The position numbers and the translations under genes were made by a program. Shown piece by piece: positions 51,904 to 61,070 of a stretch of DNA of 64,000 bases. The notes under the pieces were generated by a model, which saw only the letters and a list, made by a program, of their open reading frames with translations, made no database searches and was not told the origin of the DNA. Position 1 is the stretch's first letter, and the number at the start of each line of letters is the position of its first letter. This stretch comes from Dehalococcoidia bacterium. Its GTDB lineage: Bacteria > Chloroflexota > Dehalococcoidia > Plut-88900. Where the stretch lies: positions 1,440,001 through 1,504,000 of the forward strand of contig OZ240219.1 of the NCBI GenBank assembly GCA_965197645.1, in the 5' to 3' direction.

Positions 51904-53160
51904 TTGAGCACGACTGTAGACACCGTACCGGCCACAAACAGACCTTCCTCCTACCGCTGGGTGGTAATAGTCACCTGGATGATCTCCCATATCTGGGGGT
52001 TTATCGCGGTAGAAAGCCTCGGGTTTCTGCTTCCCAGCATGCGGGACGAACTGGGCCTCGAACCTATTCATGAGGGGCTGCTGGGAGCCGCACCTCTCAT
52101 CGGCGTGTTGTTCCTTGCGATAGCGTCCGGCATGGTCATGTCCAGGTTCAGCCCAAAACGCCTCACCACTATCACGCTGCTCGTCGGTACCGGACTGCTG
52201 GTCTTTCAAGGCTGGGCCCCGACCTTTGCGGTGCTGCTGGTGGGCCGCCTCCTCTACGGCATCTCCATCGTTGCCAGAGAGCCGGCCCGCGCCTTGCTGA
52301 TAAGGCAATGGATCCGACTCAGGGAGATAGTGGTAGCCAACGCCTCCATGAACCTCCTGTGGGGCATCAGCTCTATAGCGTTTATCCTCATCCCCCAGAT
52401 TCTCAAGCTTCTGGATGATAGCTGGCGGGACACCCTTTACCTGTTCGCAGCGATCTCGTTGGGGATGACCTTCGCATGGCAGATACTGGGTAGGGAGCGC
52501 GTAAACCCGGAATACTCCGGTGACCCCGCGTCTAGAGAGAGACCCCAGATAACCGCCGTCCTGAGATACAAGGAGCTGTGGTTGATCGGCATGGGAGTGG
52601 TGGGAATAGACATGGCGTTCGGAGCGCTGGCGGTATTCTGGCCCAGCTACATGCTGGACACCTACGATTTTTCCCTGCAGATGAGCGCCATAATGTGGGC
52701 TGTCAGCGGGCTTACCTCCGCTGTATCGGCGCTGGGAGTAGGCCTGATAGCTCAAAAAACGGGCAGACGAAGACCATTTCTAACCGCCGCAGGGATATTG
52801 ATGACCGTCACTACTATAGGGCTGCTCCTTACTGGTCACCTTCCCTATCTGGTATTGATATCCATCTCCCAGGGGTTGGCGTTTTCGATATTCCCCATTC
52901 TCATGACCATCCCCTTCGAGCTTCCCAACATAAAGCCCCGGGAAATAGCAGTGGCCAACGGGTTCATCGAGACCTTCTTCGTGGGCGGCGCCATGCTGGG
53001 TCCGATAGTGGCGGGCGGAATCCAGCAGATAACCGGTGATCAGAGACTGGCCCTGATGATCACCAGTGTCTGCGCGCTGACCCTTACGGCCACCGGGTTA
53101 CTACTGCCCAGGCAGGTGGACCAGATAGGGGGCCGGCAGCCCGCGCCCCAGACCGCCTAG
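51904..53160 (+). CDS. MFS transporter
   Basis: About 12 TM segments; paralogue of 22284-23516. Confidence 0.88.
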   Translation: MSTTVDTVPATNRPSSYRWVVIVTWMISHIWGFIAVESLGFLLPSMRDELGLEPIHEGLLGAAPLIGVLFLAIASGMVMSRFSPKRLTTITLLVGTGLLVFQGWAPTFAVLLVGRLLYGISIVAREPARALLIRQWIRLREIVVANASMNLLWGISSIAFILIPQILKLLDDSWRDTLYLFAAISLGMTFAWQILGRERVNPEYSGDPASRERPQITAVLRYKELWLIGMGVVGIDMAFGALAVFWPSYMLDTYDFSLQMSAIMWAVSGLTSAVSALGVGLIAQKTGRRRPFLTAAGILMTVTTIGLLLTGHLPYLVLISISQGLAFSIFPILMTIPFELPNIKPREIAVANGFIETFFVGGAMLGPIVAGGIQQITGDQRLALMITSVCALTLTATGLLLPRQVDQIGGRQPAPQTA

Positions 53161-54176
53161 ATCGCCCGGACGGCCTTGATGGTCTTCTTGAGCTGAGCTT
53201 CGTCCTCTGGATCGTCCTTGGGAAGAGGCAGCGAGGTCTGGGTGGCCCAGGCGCCGAAACGAGCCTTGACGGCATCGGCGATCTTGTCGTAGGTGCCGAT
53301 GGCGGAGAAAGCCTCCACCATTTCGTCGGTAATGAGGCCGACCATATTCTTCCACTCGCCGTTGAGGGATAGCTGATGAAGCTCTCCGGTCAGGTGTCCC
53401 CAGCCGTGTATGTCGAACACCGGGTTGTAGGTGCGGGTGGACCCGTAAAAGGACATCGACTCCCTGATCTGCTCTACCCCCCGGGCCACGTCCTCATCGG
53501 TGGCGCCCGTAATCACGAACCCACCCCCGGTAATCTCCAGGTCCTTGATCGATCTATCGGACTTCTCCAGCCCCTTTTCTAGGTTGGGCAGCACCACCTC
53601 GTCCACGTACTTGCCGGTGCAGAACCCGTGGAGCCGCAGGCTATCGCATACCTCGCCGGCCGACCGGATGTTGTATGTGTTCACCGCGGAAATTCCTATG
53701 GGAATGGTGGGATGATCGATGGGTCCGGGATCGAAGAAGGGGGTCATCAGGTTGAAGTTGTAGAACTTGCCCTGGAAGTTGAGCGGGGTGCGGTTCTGCC
53801 AGCAGTCCCAGATGACCCTCAACGATTGGACGTACTCCTTCAACCGGGGGCCCGGCGAGTCCCAGGGCACGCTGAACCGGCGCTGAATATGCCCCTTGAC
53901 CTGCGTCCCCAGGCCCAGTTGGAACCTGCCACCGGAGAGGTCTTGAATGGCCCACGCCTGATAGGCCGTGGTCATAGGGCTGCGGGGAAACGCCAGCGCT
54001 ATGTCCGTGGACAGCTGCACGTTGCTGGTGTGCTCGGCGGCGAGGGTGGAGGACAGGAAGGGGTCCAGCTTGATCTCGGGCACGGTGACTCCGTCGTAGC
54101 CCAGGTCCTCTATCCGCTTGGCCTCACCGGCTATATTCTTCAGACTGTCGTCACCTACGGAGGCGTAAACTTTCAT
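53157..54176 (-). CDS. LLM-class probable F420-dependent oxidoreductase
   Basis: E.LGYDG...PE...DPFL, IALAFPRSPM..AY.AW..Q..SGGRF.LGLGTQVKGHI.RRFS, LMTPFFDPGP and FYGSTRTY. Confidence 0.92.
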   Translation of the reverse strand: MKVYASVGDDSLKNIAGEAKRIEDLGYDGVTVPEIKLDPFLSSTLAAEHTSNVQLSTDIALAFPRSPMTTAYQAWAIQDLSGGRFQLGLGTQVKGHIQRRFSVPWDSPGPRLKEYVQSLRVIWDCWQNRTPLNFQGKFYNFNLMTPFFDPGPIDHPTIPIGISAVNTYNIRSAGEVCDSLRLHGFCTGKYVDEVVLPNLEKGLEKSDRSIKDLEITGGGFVITGATDEDVARGVEQIRESMSFYGSTRTYNPVFDIHGWGHLTGELHQLSLNGEWKNMVGLITDEMVEAFSAIGTYDKIADAVKARFGAWATQTSLPLPKDDPEDEAQLKKTIKAVRAI

Positions 54177-54194
54177 TCGATGGTCCTCTAATCT

Positions 54195-54806
54195 TTACTC
54201 GTAGACCTCCAGCATCAGGTCCGTGCATTCATCGCCGTTTATGGAATCCAGGTCCCAGGAGCAGGAGGTCACCACGACAAGCAGGTCCTTGAGAGCTTCC
54301 AACAGCACGTAGTCCCCCGGCTTGGCAGGAGAGGTCTTGGACTCCCAGTGGCCCTCCAGGTCCACGATGGGGGTATTCTGGAACAGGTTCACGGGGTGGG
54401 GTGGATGTGCGGGTGTGAAGTCGAACTCCTCCAACACCTCATTCAGGTTGTCCCGGCAGTTGCGGTGGTCGGACGAGGCGCCCACGGCCTCGAAAAGGGC
54501 GGGACTTCAGGCATTCAGGAGGAAATCGTGCACTCCTACGGTATCCTCCTCCAAATTGAGTAGGGGGTCCAGCTTGTTGCTGTAGAGGGGCTGGCCGAGG
54601 ATGGGGTAGATGCGACGCAGCTGGCTCCAGCTGCCATCGGGCGATAGGTACTCTCCCGGATCGTCTAGAACGAAGGCGAACAGATCGCCTATCTGCTGGC
54701 CATGGGTGTTGACGACTTTGACCCTCTGGCCCTTCTTGGCCAGTACGCCACCGCCGTGATAGGCGGGCACCAGTCGTTCCGATAACAGTTTTCTTCCGGT
54801 GGTCAT
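54195..54806 (-). CDS. DUF1989 (urea carboxylase-associated/CgdAB-like) protein with in-frame UGA (probable selenocysteine; alternatively a pseudogene)
   Basis: The two track ORFs (54507-54806 and 54195-54485) share one frame, separated only by TGA at 54509-54507. Read-through gives 203 aa with G.QI.D, HD....[U], H.NC.DN, P.NLF.N, S.PGDYV.L.A and TSC..D. Confidence 0.85.
54474..54492 (-). promoter_or_regulatory. Candidate bacterial SECIS hairpin
   Basis: Starts 14 nt after the UGA: CGAGGC-C-GUGG-G-C-GCCUCG, with an apical loop starting GU. Confidence 0.5.
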
Positions 54807-54920
54807 GGGCGTCCTCCCCTCCTGAATATCAAGCAGCTAGAGCGGTGTCAACGATACCGTCGAGACACGAGATGTGTCAAACACCGCCCTCCATGCCCGA
54901 CTGCTGTCACCAGGCCGATG

Positions 54921-55061
54921 GGGCACGGGGTCTGGAAAGGGGCGAAGCCCCCTTGTCGGAAGCCTGAGAGCCTGCCCTGAACTCGCCGAAGGGGTGTCCC
55001 TCAGAATTTTTCTTTATCTCTTCCTCCTTCCAGGCTTGGAAGGGGGGCAGGGGGATGGTCG
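54921..55061 (+). repeat. Composite GC-rich palindromic intergenic element (MITE/REP-like)
   Basis: AGGGGCGAAGCCCCT hairpin, CTGAG...CCCTCAG, CCTTCCAGGCTTGGAAGG, and a terminal GGGGATGGTCG shared with about 51470-51497. Confidence 0.55.
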
Positions 55062-55115
55062 TCAAAACCTTGCCCTGTGCCTGCATCGCCGTTATCCTCA
55101 TAGAGGAGTCCATCC

Positions 55116-56102
55116 ATGGTAGAAACCGACACACAATCCATCGCTGCCACCGCCAACCGGCTGTACGAAAACATCGGGCGGGTCATCGTCGGCAAACGGG
55201 AGGTGGCAGAGCTGTTCCTGGTAGCCACGCTGTGCGAGGGCCACGTGCTGATCGAGGACGTGCCGGGCATCGGCAAGACCATGCTGGCCCGTTCCGTGTC
55301 TCGCTCCTTGGGCTGCTCCTTCCGGCGCATACAATGCACCCCCGACCTGCTCCCCTCCGATATCACCGGCACCTACATATACAACCAGCAGACCAGCGAG
55401 TTTCAGTTCCGACCCGGCCCCATTTTCGCCCAGGTGGTGCTGGCCGACGAGATCAACCGGGCCACTCCCCGCACCCAATCTGCGATGCTGGAGGCCATGG
55501 AGGAAGGCCAGGTGACGGCGGAGGGCGAGACCAAGGCTCTGCCAAAGCCGTTCCTGATAATGGCCACCCAGAACCCCATCGAGCTGGAGGGCACCTTCCC
55601 GCTGCCCGAGGCCCAGCTGGACCGGTTCCTGCTGCGAGTCAGAATGGGCTACCCAACCGAGGAGGACGACCAGCTGATTCTCGACCGGTTCGCCGAAGAT
55701 AATCCCATACATGCCCTGGAACCTGTAATCTCGGCCGAGGAGCTGACCGGATTGCAGACCAGCTGCCGCGGGGTAAGGGTAGGCCCCGAGGTCCGGCGGT
55801 ACGTAATCCAGCTTGTCCATGCCACCCGAGAGCATCCCCAGGTGGAGTTGGGCGCCAGTCCCCGCGCCATGCTGGGCATGTTCAGAACAGCCCAGGCCCT
55901 GGCCGCCGTCCGGGGGAGCGACTACGTTATCCCGGACCACGTCAAGTACCTGGCTCCCTTCGTGCTGGAGCATCGGATCATCGCCGATGCCCAGAGCCAC
56001 ATTCGCGGGCTTACCGCCTCGGGTATCCTGCGCGAGGTGCTGGACTCGGTGCCCGTTCCCGTGGAAGACGAGGAGGGCGTCGCGTCGGAAGCGGGGCGCT
56101 AG
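55116..56102 (+). CDS. MoxR family AAA+ ATPase (second paralogue)
   Basis: [39 protein letters not shown] and [14 protein letters not shown]. Confidence 0.96.
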   Translation: MVETDTQSIAATANRLYENIGRVIVGKREVAELFLVATLCEGHVLIEDVPGIGKTMLARSVSRSLGCSFRRIQCTPDLLPSDITGTYIYNQQTSEFQFRPGPIFAQVVLADEINRATPRTQSAMLEAMEEGQVTAEGETKALPKPFLIMATQNPIELEGTFPLPEAQLDRFLLRVRMGYPTEEDDQLILDRFAEDNPIHALEPVISAEELTGLQTSCRGVRVGPEVRRYVIQLVHATREHPQVELGASPRAMLGMFRTAQALAAVRGSDYVIPDHVKYLAPFVLEHRIIADAQSHIRGLTASGILREVLDSVPVPVEDEEGVASEAGR

Positions 56103-56104
56103 AG

Positions 56105-57346
56105 GTGCTGAGCGGCGCCTGGATCAGCTTTACCCTGGCGCTGGTCCTGATAGGGGTGCTGACCCAGCAGACCCTCATACTGCTGGCGGCCCTCCTTTTC
56201 TTTTTCACCTCGGGAGTAGCCAGGCTGTGGACCAGATATGCCCTGGACCGCATGGAGTACAAGCGCAGCTTCAGCGTAAACCGGGCCTTCTTCGGCGAGA
56301 CCATCAACCTGGAACTGGGCATAGCCAATCTCAAAATCCTGCCCGTGCCCTGGCTTCACATCCGGGACGAGGTCCCCGAGGAGCTGACCTTCCTGAAAGG
56401 CGTCACCATTCCTACCCACAAACCCTCCCGCCTGACGCTGCCCAACTTCCTATCGTTGGGGTGGTACCACCGCATAACCCGCCGCTATCCCATCCAGTGC
56501 CTGAGGAGGGGTTATTTCTCCTTCGGTCCGGCCACCATCCGCTCCGGCGACCTTTTCGGCTTCTTCAACAAGCAACTCACCGAGGAGAAGGTTGACCGCC
56601 TGCTGGTCTATCCTCGCATCGTGCCTCTGGAGAGCCTCGACATCCCATCTCGAAACCCCTTTGGCGATATGAAAGTGAGGCGGCACCTCTTCCAGGACCC
56701 AGTCCGGGTGGCGACAATCAGGGAGTATCAGCCTGGCGACCCGTTGAAGCATATCCACTGGAAGGCCTCGGCCCGATTGAGGCGGCTCCAGTCCCGCGTC
56801 TTCGAGCCCACGACGGCGGTGGACCTGAGCATCTTTCTCGATCAGACCACCGGGGATGACTCCTTTTTCGGCGCTCCCGTACAGCAGGAACTGGAAACGG
56901 CCGTGCTGGTGGCAGCCTCGGTGGCCAGCTACGCTGTCAACAATGGGTACCGCGTTGGCCTGTACGCCAACGAGCTGTACGCCAACACCAGGCGGCTGAT
57001 GAAGCTCTCTCCATCGGACCACCCGGACCAGCTGACCCTGGTGCTGGAGGCCCTGGCCCAGGTACGGGGCCTCCCCTTCGGTGGGCTGGACGAGATGTTG
57101 GACCGGGAGGCGCGCTCGCTGCCATGGGACAGCACAATGGTAGTGATTTCGGCGTCGCCGCAGCGGTCCTCCATGGCCACATTGCACCGGTACCGTCGCG
57201 CAGGCCGGCGAGTGGCCCTAATCCTCATAGGTGAGCGGGCCGGTCGCATCCAGCCCAAGGGAATTCCCGTCTACCACGTTTCGGACCAAGTCTACTGGCG
57301 AGAGGTAGAGTCGCTGCGGCTGACGCCTCTGGGAGATTCGACCTAG
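56105..57346 (+). CDS. DUF58 (vWA-like) protein
   Basis: RRGYF.FGP, GDLFGF, LVYP, REYQPGDP.K.IHWKASAR, LE.AV.VAAS and VGLY.N. Confidence 0.92.
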   Translation: MLSGAWISFTLALVLIGVLTQQTLILLAALLFFFTSGVARLWTRYALDRMEYKRSFSVNRAFFGETINLELGIANLKILPVPWLHIRDEVPEELTFLKGVTIPTHKPSRLTLPNFLSLGWYHRITRRYPIQCLRRGYFSFGPATIRSGDLFGFFNKQLTEEKVDRLLVYPRIVPLESLDIPSRNPFGDMKVRRHLFQDPVRVATIREYQPGDPLKHIHWKASARLRRLQSRVFEPTTAVDLSIFLDQTTGDDSFFGAPVQQELETAVLVAASVASYAVNNGYRVGLYANELYANTRRLMKLSPSDHPDQLTLVLEALAQVRGLPFGGLDEMLDREARSLPWDSTMVVISASPQRSSMATLHRYRRAGRRVALILIGERAGRIQPKGIPVYHVSDQVYWREVESLRLTPLGDST

Positions 57347-57348
57347 CC

Positions 57349-58890
57349 ATGCGCCAGGATCGTCCTCTTCTGTGGCTTCCCAACGCCGAGCGGATCATGC
57401 CGGTCCTGGTAGTGTTCGCCGAGGTGCTGTGGCTCTATCCGTGTGTGGTCTGGATTAGCGGTTGGGACATCCTCGGCCTGGAAGAGCCGCCTCTAACCCT
57501 GGTTGGGGCCCTGATGATCGCCATTGGGGCGGAAAGATTGCCGAGACTGTTCCTCGCCCTGGGGGGACCGCTGGAGCGGGCGCGTGTTACCTCGTTGTTC
57601 GGCGTCGTCCTCTTGCTGGCCCTGGTCGTGCGGCTGGACTCCGGGGGAGGCTACATACTGTGGGACACCGGTTGGAGAGAGTACGCGCAGGACAACGTGG
57701 TCCTCATCGTCGGCGGACTGGCCTTGGGAGCCGTCCTCGCCTACCGGGGCCTCTCGATGGGCGTGGAGCTGCCTTCTTTTCATAGCCTGTATCGCAGGTT
57801 CGTTGTGGGGGCTGTATCCCTGCTCGTGCTCATGGTGACGTGGAGCGTCACTGCCCACGCCGAGGGGTTCTCCTCCATTCCCGCCTCCACCGGTGTCTAC
57901 CTGGCCTCCTACTTCTTCATGGGGCTTCTCGTCCTCGCCCTTTCCCACCTTCGCACCTTCAAAGAGACGATGGCCGAGCACCAGGAGTCGACCAGCTTCC
58001 TGAATCGATGGTCTCTCTCGCTGCTGCTGGGCGTTCTAGGCCTCATCGTAGCTGCATCCCTGGGCATCGCCAGCATCTTCTCCTTCGATCTGGCCGCCCT
58101 GATGCTAAGCCCCTTCAAGGCCCTGGCGGAGTGGATACTCATCGGCTTCACCTACGCAGTCATTCTGCCCTTGGCCCTAGCCGTCGGAGGGGTCCTGTGG
58201 ATCATAAACCAGCTCCGCGGAAGCGGAGATGAATTCGATCCGCCGGATCTGTCCCCGCTTCAGGACCCGGAAACCATCGAAGATCCTACCGCAGACCTGC
58301 TCCCGGGAGCCGAGATGGTCGAATCCGGAGGCATCCCCCCGGAGCTGGTGCTGGCCTTGAAGTGGGGACTGTTTGCCATAGTCGCCATCGTTGTGTTCTT
58401 CTTCCTGGCCAGGGCACTGGCCCGCTATCGCAAGGGCCGTTCCGACGACGAGGTCGAAGAGGTAAGCGAGTCGTTGCTGTCCTGGTCCGTCTTCGGTGCG
58501 GACCTCCGAATCTTCCTGTCCGGCCTCTTCGACCGCTTCCGCAAACGGGCCGACGAAGCGGTGGCATCGGTCTCTCCTCCCCTTTCCGTAACCGATATAG
58601 AAGACGACGTCGAAAGCCAGTTCACCACCCGCGAGATCTACCAGGGCATGCTGTGGGAGGCCCGCCTGTCCGGTCTCCCTCGACTCCATCCGGAGACGCC
58701 GTACGAGTACCAGGGAAAGCTGGAACGCCATCTTGCAGACGACGTCGAGCTCCATGCCATCACCCAAGCCTATGTGGACGAACGCTACGGTGGCGTCCAG
58801 ACCGATTCGCAGCGCCTAAGGTTGTTGAACATGATGTGGCGTCGGCTCCGGTCGATGCTGAGAGGGCTGAGAGACCCGCCCGAGCCCTGA
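57349..58890 (+). CDS. Multi-TM protein with C-terminal DUF4129-like domain
   Basis: Many TM segments; C-terminal R.IY..ML......G..R...ETPYEY...L...IT.AY...RYG. Confidence 0.8.
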   Translation: MRQDRPLLWLPNAERIMPVLVVFAEVLWLYPCVVWISGWDILGLEEPPLTLVGALMIAIGAERLPRLFLALGGPLERARVTSLFGVVLLLALVVRLDSGGGYILWDTGWREYAQDNVVLIVGGLALGAVLAYRGLSMGVELPSFHSLYRRFVVGAVSLLVLMVTWSVTAHAEGFSSIPASTGVYLASYFFMGLLVLALSHLRTFKETMAEHQESTSFLNRWSLSLLLGVLGLIVAASLGIASIFSFDLAALMLSPFKALAEWILIGFTYAVILPLALAVGGVLWIINQLRGSGDEFDPPDLSPLQDPETIEDPTADLLPGAEMVESGGIPPELVLALKWGLFAIVAIVVFFFLARALARYRKGRSDDEVEEVSESLLSWSVFGADLRIFLSGLFDRFRKRADEAVASVSPPLSVTDIEDDVESQFTTREIYQGMLWEARLSGLPRLHPETPYEYQGKLERHLADDVELHAITQAYVDERYGGVQTDSQRLRLLNMMWRRLRSMLRGLRDPPEP

Positions 58891-59016: not shown

Positions 59017-60024
59017 GTGACCGACAGGCTGATCACCTATTACACCGGGTTCCCATCCTTTTTCAACGCTCCGATCAAGGAGATCGACCAGGTAGAAGAG
59101 GGAATGGTGGTTGTAGCGGGAGTGCCCATCGATCAGGGAGTGGTCACGGCCCGGAACGGTGCTCGGTTCGGGCCCCGAGGCATACGAGAGGCCTCCATGA
59201 GCCTTCGAGGCGCCTACGAGGTCGCTTCCGAACACACCCTCCGTGAACCGGACAGCGATCTCTGGCTGCGGCCCAAGGAGGCTCCCAGCTTCGGCGACAT
59301 CGGCGATTTCCACGTTAATCCCACCGACATCCGGGACACGACCAAGACCGTCATAGAGGGGGTGGGCGATATCGTCAAGCGCGGCGGCATGCCGGTGATC
59401 CTCGGCGGTGACCACTACGTGGCCTATCCCGGTTTCGCCGGGTTCGCACGGGGTATGCTGGAGCGGAAGTCCAACCCTCGCCTGGGGTATCTCCACATCG
59501 ACAGCCACCCCGACTTCAGAGACCGGCACGGGGTGGGGGGCAAGTACACCCACGGCACCCAGGTGCGACGCCTGAGCGAAGATACCACCATCTCCTACAA
59601 GAATATGGCCTGGGTCGGGCTCAACGGGGCGGTCATCGATCCAGCCCAGCATCGTATCTTCGATAAGGAGGGGATGAAGGTGATGTCGGCCAAGGTGGTA
59701 CGAGAGCAGGGCCCGGCAGAGGTTGTGAGACAGGCAATGGAGGTGGTGGCCGATAGCGCCGACGCCGTCTACGTGAGCATCGACATCGACGTGGTCGACG
59801 GCTCCTTCGCTCCGGGCACCGGCGCCGCCGTCTTCACCGGCATCACCACCGATGAGTTTATCGGCATCACCGACGCTCTCAGCGGGTACGACGTCATCGC
59901 CGCAGTGGACATGTGCGAGGTATCGCCACCGCTGGACCCCATGAACCGGACGGTGTTCCTCGCCGCCAACGGCCTCTTGAGCGTGCTCACCCCAAAGCTG
60001 CTGGATGTGGTGGACGTGGACTGA
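59017..60024 (+). CDS. Ureohydrolase (agmatinase/arginase family) paralogue 1, intact metal site
   Basis: GVP.D, GARFGP..IRE.S, GGDH, HIDSHPD, THGT, SIDIDVVD...APGT and CEVSP. Confidence 0.93.
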   Translation: MTDRLITYYTGFPSFFNAPIKEIDQVEEGMVVVAGVPIDQGVVTARNGARFGPRGIREASMSLRGAYEVASEHTLREPDSDLWLRPKEAPSFGDIGDFHVNPTDIRDTTKTVIEGVGDIVKRGGMPVILGGDHYVAYPGFAGFARGMLERKSNPRLGYLHIDSHPDFRDRHGVGGKYTHGTQVRRLSEDTTISYKNMAWVGLNGAVIDPAQHRIFDKEGMKVMSAKVVREQGPAEVVRQAMEVVADSADAVYVSIDIDVVDGSFAPGTGAAVFTGITTDEFIGITDALSGYDVIAAVDMCEVSPPLDPMNRTVFLAANGLLSVLTPKLLDVVDVD

Positions 60025-60048
60025 ACCCCGGTGTAACGGCTACGGCCA

Positions 60049-60057
60049 TGCTATAAT
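60049..60057 (+). promoter_or_regulatory. Extended -10 promoter (TGcTATAAT) internal to the ureohydrolase array
   Basis: Consensus TGnTATAAT ending 35 nt before the start of paralogue 2. Confidence 0.55.
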
Positions 60058-60092
60058 ATCGGTCACTCCCAGCTTCCTTAGAGGGCAACCGG

Positions 60093-61070
60093 ATGTACGA
60101 AAGAGACCTGCTTCCCTCTTTTGCCGGAATCAACACCTTCGCCCGAGCGCCGGAGGGCATCATTGACAATCTCTCCGCGGGCGACGTAGCGGTGGTTGGC
60201 ATCCCCTTGGAGATAACACCCGGCGCCAGGCAGGGCACCAGGGAAGGCCCCCGCTCCATCCGCAACGCCAGTGCCGATTTCATCTACGAGCTGCAGGCCT
60301 CCACCTCCGGCGCTCTCATAGACATCAACACCGGGCGAACTCTCCGTATGCCCTCCGAGCTGCGCCTGACCGACCTGGGCGACCTCAGCGTCGACCCATC
60401 GGCCCTGAACCAGGCCACGGACCGGTCACGAAGCATTATGGAGGCCATCGTTGGGAAGTCCGCATTCCCCGTGGCCATCGGCGGCGATCACATCATCACC
60501 TATCCGCTGGTCGAGAGCTACGTCGCCGCCACTGGCAAGAAGGTGGGGCTGGTCCAGCTTTCCAGCCAGCTTGATCTGGCCGATCCCGACACCGAGTGGG
60601 GAGAGAACGGCTACGGCGCAACCCTTCGCCACATCATCGATGGTGGAAGCATCGATCCCAAGAACATTGTCTTCGTAGGTACTCAGGGCTACATCACACA
60701 CAAGGAGTGGAGCCTGGCCCAGTCCCTGGGCGCCACCGTCATAACCGCAGACTCGGCCAGGGAGAAAGGGCCCGAGGCCACGGCTCAACAGGCGCTGGAA
60801 ACGGCCGGAGCAGGCGCCGACATCATCTACCTGAGCCTGGACGTGGACGTAGTGGACTCGGGGTACGCATCGGGCACCGGCGAGGTGGTGATCGGCGGTC
60901 TGAAGCCCATCGAGGTGCTCTCCCTGATGCGCGAGCTCTCAAAGTCCGATGCCATAGGCGCCATGGATGTGGTGGAGGTTGCCCCTTCCCTGGACGTTCG
61001 GGGCAGGACGGAACGGCTCGCCGCCGAGGCCATCATAGAGCTCATCGCTCCCAAGGTGTTCGGAGCCTAG
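60093..61070 (+). CDS. Ureohydrolase paralogue 2, degenerate DxHxD (QLSSQLD)
   Basis: G.R.GP.SIR.AS, GGDH, SLDVDVVD and VEVAP retained; DAH replaced by SSQ. Confidence 0.9.
   Translation: MYERDLLPSFAGINTFARAPEGIIDNLSAGDVAVVGIPLEITPGARQGTREGPRSIRNASADFIYELQASTSGALIDINTGRTLRMPSELRLTDLGDLSVDPSALNQATDRSRSIMEAIVGKSAFPVAIGGDHIITYPLVESYVAATGKKVGLVQLSSQLDLADPDTEWGENGYGATLRHIIDGGSIDPKNIVFVGTQGYITHKEWSLAQSLGATVITADSAREKGPEATAQQALETAGAGADIIYLSLDVDVVDSGYASGTGEVVIGGLKPIEVLSLMRELSKSDAIGAMDVVEVAPSLDVRGRTERLAAEAIIELIAPKVFGA

Follow-up and report, generated by a model that had tools for sequence, protein, structure and literature searches.

A 64,000-nucleotide stretch of the genome of a Dehalococcoidia bacterium (GenBank assembly GCA_965197645.1, contig OZ240219.1, positions 1,440,001 to 1,504,000; hereafter the window, whose own numbering is used below) carries on its reverse strand a gene of the DUF1989 family (PF09347) whose frame is interrupted by one UGA, at codon 100. 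In all likelihood, this is an intact gene for a selenocysteine (Sec)-containing member of the family: the UGA falls on a column that is otherwise cysteine, a hairpin resembling a bacterial Sec insertion sequence (SECIS) follows it, and the genome carries the machinery for Sec decoding. Judged from sequence comparison, it would add a new family to a kind of system that is well known, with the placement of Sec at a non-redox zinc ligand as the unusual point. We tentatively put forward, at slightly less than even confidence, that the protein holds a natural catalytic zinc-selenolate centre, with Sec100 as a first-shell ligand of a non-redox active-site Zn2+, and that the lineage repeats this arrangement in a family resembling zinc alcohol dehydrogenases (Zn-ADH-like).

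The interrupted frame and its cysteine column

Two open reading frames (ORFs) on the reverse strand, 54806-54507 (99 aa) and 54485-54195 (96 aa), share one frame, in which the TGA at 54509-54507 is the sole interruption before the stop TAA at 54197-54195. An earlier reading made from the sequence alone (the sequence-only reading) had described a single-TGA frame with a 203-aa read-through product and the flanking residues VGVHDFLLNA-U, and the ORFs and their translation bear this out (...VGVHDFLLNA-U-SPALFEAVGASSDHRNC...). The PF09347 profile spans the TGA (residues 13-176, E 3.5e-39, 134.6 bits versus a cut-off of 27, profile positions 3-168 of 168), and the three metal-ligand positions of DUF1989 are kept as U100, C117 and C182, with Sec for the first. 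That reading had also named an HD-x4-C motif and an S.C cysteine; the latter is present, but as T-S-C182 (S-A-C in most relatives), and the spacing of the former is different, namely H93-D94-x5-U100. When all in-frame TGAs of the genome with open flanks are ranked by the coding score of the lower-scoring flank, UGA-100 comes first of 18,055.

Across the family, the residue at this column is either TGA-encoded or Cys. A MAFFT alignment of 33 family sequences from the window's genome and 60 relatives has Cys in 31, the other two being the window gene and L014, a locus of genome G001, which both have TGA. In other species, 42 loci (35-57% identity; Dehalococcoidia/SAR202, Acidobacteriota, Gemmatimonadota and others) gave 48 tblastn rows, all with TGC or TGT in the column, and the same codons stand in all 76 non-TGA rows among 79 full-length rows. 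Sec forms are rare in DUF1989, at two of 49 matches in 61 related genomes, two of the 33 that 301 genomes of the class yield at E <= 1e-25, and none of the 48 rows of the species-representative scan. The window's genome itself holds five other DUF1989 paralogues.

The second TGA clade consists of L014 and a metagenome contig, L088, which are 97.6% identical in DNA and have TGA in the same column. L088 was the one true relative obtained by scanning a metagenome collection by pattern; a window-type TGA gene was not found in that scan, and a further candidate from it, L089, proved to be a chance match. In a tree of the 79 full-length rows, L014 and L088 lie in a 13-row clade (node value 97) and the window gene in a 30-row clade (node value 99), both otherwise Cys, and the tree forces at least two changes of state at the Sec column. 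The TGA/Cys alternation that was expected of homologues is thus present at one column and in two clades. After the TGA, L014 and L088 differ by six synonymous changes and one non-synonymous change, the hairpin DNA is identical in the two, and genome G001 carries selB.

Predicted proteins from elsewhere end at the same place. P0002 (92% identity, 99 aa) and P0003 (57% identity, 130 aa) both stop exactly before the Sec column, and the twin-arginine-like leader of P0003 (S-R-R-E-L-V) suggests an exported Sec form. In a search of representatives, three of the best 150 of 672 matches (E <= 1e-3), among which 16 of the short entries were examined, end before the Cys column: P0002, P0033 and P0140. 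The last of these (94 aa, 3ORU-like type) may be a third Sec lineage or a contig-end cut, and is a lead only. When the C-terminal fragment was used as the query, all 13 matches besides the window's own P0005 were Cys-type or fragments, and no partner of P0003 was found among them.

The TGA is also stable among strains. Contigs from runs X1, X3 and X5, which belong to three studies, cover 53900-55000, and none is altered at 54507-54509. The X1 contig is identical to the window over this span (0 differences), and X1 is possibly its source, whereas the X3 and X5 contigs each show 15 differences in 1101 positions. Within the gene, variable sites upstream of the TGA comprise nine synonymous and one non-synonymous; downstream of it there are five synonymous and two non-synonymous, both of the latter in codon 129, and neither a frameshift nor a second stop follows. 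An assembly error at the TGA and relaxed selection after it would each have undone the sequence-only reading; the contigs of three studies keep the TGA, and downstream changes are mainly synonymous in the window strains as well as between L014 and L088.

Hairpin and decoding machinery

The SECIS-like hairpin begins 14 nt after UGA-100 and has the GU-led loop that the sequence-only reading described (54492-54474). Criteria of the bSECISearch type call for a stem-loop just 3' of the UGA whose apical loop contains a G and lies some 16-37 nt away. We used a loose implementation of our own of such rules: a single hairpin with a loop of 3-6 nt that starts at +20 to +32 and has G in its first two positions, scored by its constrained folding energy (dG). 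The window hairpin scores -10.6 kcal/mol and that of L014 -10.4, with its loop at +25. Twelve other presumed Sec genes of the genome, chosen by eye from motifs before NCBIfam backed some of them, score -5.9 to -12.8, with 11 of the 12 at -8.0 or below and loops at +21 to +31.

Within the family, the hairpin signal is specific. The three TGA rows rank second to fourth of 79 by constrained score; a score of -10 is attained by only one of the 76 Cys rows and by no in-clade Cys orthologue (29 rows; best -8.1). The hairpin thus goes with the TGA-bearing members. The sole strain variant within it, at 54480 in run X5, changes the bulged base and is synonymous. Plain minimum free energy (MFE) of the 45 nt after the codon was rejected as a measure, since it does not separate Sec from Cys rows (window -10.9, several Cys rows -15 to -21), and an earlier detector that required at least five perfect pairs missed the bulged hairpin and was dropped. 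A search of Rfam over 54100-55150 at E <= 1 gave one chance match to a long non-coding RNA only.

The genome to which the window belongs is a single contig of 3.21 Mb, assembled from a metagenome. All four genes needed for Sec insertion are present: selA (449 bits), selB (347 bits) and selD (380 bits) score over their curated cut-offs, selD itself with an in-frame TGA, and selC is represented by a tRNA-SeC with anticodon tca at C1 214533-214631. TGA closes 746 long ORFs of this genome as an ordinary stop; the code is therefore standard, not reassigned. Further, a genome-wide TGA scan raises many genes with TGA in motifs of known selenoprotein families, and the genome is seemingly selenoprotein-rich, with candidates of the types UGSC (four), GrdB (two), PrdB-like, DsbA-like, redoxin-like (two), OsmC-like, rhodanese-like and SelD. 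When ten such genes were scanned with NCBIfam, UGSC (two of three) and GrdB-family selenoprotein B exceeded the cut-offs, and the matches to OsmC-like, PrdB-like, redoxin and rhodanese families lay below them. The main text of BSepDB places Dehalococcoidia genomes among the most selenoprotein-rich (46-49 genes), so that a large selenoproteome of the lineage was already known.

Predicted zinc site and competing explanations

The fold follows from the match to 3ORU over residues 12-200 (E 3.5e-35). A second match, to PDB 9Q59 (residues 70-201, E 1.3e-16), is to the trimethylamine N-oxide (TMAO) demethylase (TDM) of Paracoccus, and its HMMER alignment puts residues 100, 117 and 182 on TDM residues 285, 301 and 365. 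According to the consulted text of a 2026 cryo-electron microscopy (cryo-EM) study (PMC13619132), C285, C301 and C365 form the 3Cys:Zn2+ motif of the TDM catalytic core, the TMAO oxygen coordinates the zinc, alanine at any of the three cysteines leads to aggregation, and the site holds a single Zn, iron not being found. The equivalent Methylocella ligands are given as C263, C279 and C343, and the same zinc-binding cysteines occur in 3SIY, 3ORU and 3DI4 (consulted text of PMC12560246). Since residues 100, 117 and 182 correspond to the TDM zinc ligands, Sec100 would be a first-shell ligand of the substrate-binding zinc, and the earlier proposal that Sec replaces a metal-site Cys gains support from the alignment.

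A mechanism can be sketched on this basis. SelB loaded with Sec-tRNA(Sec) would recognise the hairpin with its GUGG at +25 and insert Sec at codon 100. One Zn2+ would then be held by three ligands, the Sec100 selenolate and the Cys117 and Cys182 thiolates; by analogy with TMAO demethylase, a small nitrogen-rich substrate would occupy the fourth position through an O or N atom. The reaction would most likely be a non-redox cleavage of a C-N bond, of the deiminase, demethylase or hydrolase type, in which selenium could tune the Lewis acidity of the zinc or guard the site against irreversible oxidation; the product may pass to the F420-type oxidoreductase encoded by the next, probably co-transcribed gene.

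CgdAB is a heteromeric carboxyguanidine deiminase. The sequence-only reading had assigned the gene to a DUF1989/CgdAB family; DUF1989 membership holds (E 3.5e-39), but equivalence to CgdA or CgdB does not, as the protein scores 70.5 bits against a cut-off of 284.7 for TIGR03424 and 44.4 against 205.95 for TIGR03425. PMC11271267 touches on CgdAB in a single sentence. Like CgdAB (UAAP1/UAAP2), the window protein belongs to PF09347, and genes for nitrogen-compound hydrolases lie near its orthologues and in the window; in contrast, the window gene is without an adjacent second DUF1989 gene and without a carboxylase or allophanate hydrolase neighbour. The match to the TMAO demethylase model NF053776 reaches 111 bits versus 1100 and is confined to profile positions 178-363 of 763; the full-length architecture with GcvT is absent. 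Thus, TDM (9Q59, 9Q5L, 9Q5A) shares with the window protein the DUF1989 fold family and the three zinc-ligand positions, but TDM is about 790 aa long, with an extra N-domain, a folate-binding GcvT domain and three Cys, whereas the window gene encodes a single domain of 203 aa in which Sec takes the first ligand position and W184 that of D367. Closer in build are 3ORU/3SIY and 3DI4, single-domain DUF1989 proteins of similar length, which are all-Cys and have no Sec.

With bacterial Sec/Cys-pair genes in general, the window gene shares the UGA on a Cys column, the 3' hairpin and the presence of selABCD in the genome. To our knowledge, the metals that Sec contacts in known selenoproteins are either redox metals, namely Mo, W or Ni, or toxic metals that the protein handles. 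Sec also replaces a metal-coordinating Cys in formate dehydrogenase (Mo/W) and [NiFeSe] hydrogenase (Ni), as set out in the consulted text of a 2026 review (PMC13188914); these are redox metals in redox enzymes, whereas the site of the window protein is predicted to be non-redox and to hold Zn2+.

Several observations weigh against this reading, some of them against Sec decoding as such and some against the zinc assignment. That the gene genuinely decodes Sec we regard as highly probable, and most of the remaining doubt falls on a conserved-looking pseudogene, in which a TGC-to-TGA nonsense mutation would have struck a Cys-type DUF1989 gene and the hairpin would be coincidental. Such a mutation is a single step, the orthologues at 47-57% identity all have Cys, and the five paralogues could compensate. 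Hairpins with dG <= -10 follow 252 of 3066 Cys codons (8.2%) and 38 of 746 ordinary TGA stops (5.1%), and the hairpin alone is therefore modest evidence only; the comparison gene UGSC4 reaches only -5.9 and a Zn-ADH-like candidate only -3.3. Further, the Cys paralogue L028 of the window's own genome (G000:C1:725278-725871), an orthologue of L014, has a very stable hairpin (MFE -20.9; -8.8 by the constrained score, with its loop at +25) that directly follows its TGC and whose 3' arm sequence is common to L014. This hairpin may either be the remnant of a SECIS from before a change of Sec to Cys or result from the conserved D-P...Y-G-V codons, and hairpins here can thus come from coding constraints. 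The TGA and hairpin of P0002 and P0003 are deduced solely from predicted protein ends, the strain evidence consists of assembled contigs, which lose rare variants, and the only RNA contig (run X10, 53934-54225) falls short of the TGA and comes from a library that can contain DNA. A pseudogene is nevertheless improbable, because the TGA is in all three strain contigs with mostly synonymous change and an open frame beyond it, the 92% and 57% relatives end at the same column, and a separate clade has TGA in that column, again followed by synonymous-biased change. A single step leads to TGA from only 13 codons of the gene, that of the Cys column included, and to any stop from 54, which makes two random nonsense events on the same ligand codon unlikely, and the top coding score of the flanks argues in the same direction. 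Less probable again is a split gene, with the UGA as terminator and the halves at work as separate polypeptides. Gene callers do predict two proteins, and P0002 and P0005 are separate entries with five and nine member sequences, but the first in-frame start after the TGA is a GTG at 54485 before which a Shine-Dalgarno-like run was not seen, the halves lie in the same frame with neither overlap nor gap, one Pfam domain spans the junction, and only two of the three metal ligands would survive a split. There is a negligible chance that sequencing or assembly turned a TGC or TGT into this TGA: base errors are possible in a single-contig metagenome-assembled genome, but independent contigs from three runs and three studies all have TGA, and gene predictions in other assemblies end at the same place.

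If Sec is inserted, it might still be something other than a simple zinc ligand, either because the site holds another metal or because Sec100 is a redox centre or nucleophile. We consider this unlikely, though more probable than any of the explanations without Sec. The zinc assignment, including Sec as a ligand, rests on the 9Q59 match, which covers residues 70-201 only, and the pocket differs from that of TDM, with W184 at the equivalent of D367 and S183 where TDM has P. Known selenoproteins mostly catalyse redox reactions (section 7 of PMC13188914), an earlier study proposed a second metal (Fe) near the site of Methylocella Tdm, and the next gene encodes an F420-type oxidoreductase, which would fit a redox Sec. 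Against this, all three ligand positions are kept, the cryo-EM study of TDM reports one Zn and no Fe (consulted text of PMC13619132), the translation has no CxxU or UxxC redox motif around U100, and the oxidoreductase adjacency is not conserved.

Genomic setting, a possible second zinc-site family and implications

Coordinates of the gene, its elements, its neighbour and the other candidate Sec genes are collected in Table 1. The downstream gene is co-oriented with the DUF1989 gene, and no terminator-like site was found on the reverse strand between them; the two genes are probably co-transcribed. The sequence-only reading had taken this neighbour, an F420-dependent oxidoreductase of the luciferase-like monooxygenase (LLM) type, as a sign of a Se-dependent catabolic step. 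Its co-orientation, 18-nt gap and family (TIGR03617) stand, but the link does not: an LLM oxidoreductase lies within 3 kb at none of the 42 orthologue loci of other species, and at none of 42 + 33 + 2 loci besides the window's own. As the adjacency is not conserved, a conserved Se-dependent pathway is not claimed.

Table 1. Positions of the features discussed; window numbering unless a genome and contig are named
Feature	Position	Strand	Basis
DUF1989-family gene, 203 codons + TAA, UGA-100 probably read as Sec	54195..54806	-	ORF/translation; PF09347; 3ORU and 9Q59 matches
In-frame UGA at codon 100, the proposed Sec codon, aligned with zinc ligand C285 of Paracoccus TMAO demethylase	54507..54509	-	Column alignment; strain contigs
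SECIS-like hairpin, 7-bp stem, one bulged C, 4-nt loop GUGG from +25 (counted from the U of UGA)	54474..54492	-	Constrained dG -10.6
Cys117 codon (H-R-N-C), second predicted zinc ligand, equivalent to TDM C301	54456..54458	-	9Q59 alignment; column conserved
Cys182 codon (T-S-C), third predicted zinc ligand, equivalent to TDM C365	54261..54263	-	9Q59 alignment; column conserved
Shine-Dalgarno-like run, two overlapping GGAGG, nearer copy ending 6 nt 5' of the ATG at 54806	54813..54822	-	Read from sequence
Sigma-70-like promoter match, TTGACA, 18 nt, TATCGT (10/12)	54851..54880	-	Consensus match only; 1 found versus 0.5 expected
Downstream co-oriented gene, TIGR03617-family F420-dependent LLM oxidoreductase	53157..54176	-	390 bits versus cut-off 278; 18-nt gap after the DUF1989 stop
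Example presumed Sec sites, G000 C1 (strand as sign)	+2775480, +811919, +827455, -2252959, +2211941, +2857140, +257586, -742323, +806528, -2802761, +284208, +2776310		TGA scan
Medium-chain (zinc) alcohol-dehydrogenase-like genes, one in-frame TGA each (L092/L093, L101; outside the window)	G000:C1:2857718-2858800, 2859936-2861018		Motif alignment
Medium-chain (zinc) alcohol-dehydrogenase-like genes, one in-frame TGA each (L099, L100)	G002:C1:1797487-1798566, 2193761-2194840		Motif alignment

Elsewhere in the window, genes for a MoxR-type AAA ATPase, a DUF58 protein and a DUF4129 protein stand in a row at 55116-58890 (+), two tandem arginase-family genes follow at 59017-61070 (+), about 4 kb from the DUF1989 gene, and a major facilitator superfamily (MFS) transporter gene is convergent on the presumed DUF1989-LLM operon. 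A second DUF1989 gene or a carboxylase was not found between 44 and 61 kb. Neighbours of the orthologues that could be named by Pfam are few, and their clustering is noisy from spurious ORFs in G+C-rich DNA; they comprise M19 and M20 peptidases, an Amidohydro_2 protein, arginase-family genes and a nitronate monooxygenase. Upstream of the DUF1989 orthologue, a single sub-clade of Dehalococcoidia (L061, L063-L069, L075) has three arginase-family genes in tandem. From these neighbours, we infer a theme of small nitrogen compound catabolism. Tandem DUF1989 pairs, as expected for heteromeric CgdAB-like enzymes, occur at L073, L076, L077, L079, L080, L082, L090 and L091, whereas no tandem partner accompanies the window gene or its closest orthologues.

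At about 54925-55062, between the promoter region of the DUF1989 gene and the MoxR-like gene, lies an intergenic repeat (about 105-140 nt) that is dispersed over the genome, with 68 further matches by blastn (74-92% identity). Over the repeat, contig depth rises 50- to 200-fold in all three DNA runs, and it may be a miniature inverted-repeat transposable element or a repetitive extragenic palindromic element. A hint of habitat, not used as evidence, comes from small-share runs that are labelled sponge metagenome.

The Zn-ADH-like genes look like a second Sec/Cys pair at a catalytic-zinc ligand. All four of their TGAs fall in one column of the motif G-V-[C/U]-H-S-[DN]-L-H, in which paralogues and orthologues have TGC, and the Cys of this motif is presumably the one that binds the catalytic zinc in classical zinc alcohol dehydrogenases. 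Their hairpins are weak to moderate (-3.3 constrained; -8 to -11 by plain MFE). The alcohol dehydrogenase family is absent from the table and the consulted text of the 2026 review (PMC13188914). Likewise, DUF1989 is in neither Table 1 of that review of the prokaryotic selenoproteome (May 2026; 119 families and subfamilies) nor the consulted text, and it is also missing from the consulted main texts of deep-Sep and BSepDB, whose supplementary tables could list it. Full-text literature searches for DUF1989 with selenocysteine, or for a selenoprotein with 'urea carboxylase-associated', found no paper. Three papers use the term DUF1989, and none of them deals with selenium. The earlier statement that DUF1989 is not among the described selenoprotein families agrees with these sources.

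If the zinc-ligand reading is true, a non-redox zinc enzyme with a hydrolase- or lyase-type fold joins the selenoprotein families, and a wider range of chemistry than before would repay the cost of Sec insertion. If both zinc cases hold, this Dehalococcoidia-type, seemingly sponge-associated lineage repeatedly puts selenium into zinc-thiolate sites, where a possible benefit would be survival of oxidants. A natural Sec/Cys pair, made up of the window gene and Cys orthologues that are 55-57% identical to it, would allow the effect of selenium on a zinc site to be measured. As gene callers split the gene into fragments (P0002, P0005), the family model should allow U in this column. Collectively, for a family in which function is mostly unassigned, the Sec finding would provide a testable handle on what DUF1989 proteins do.

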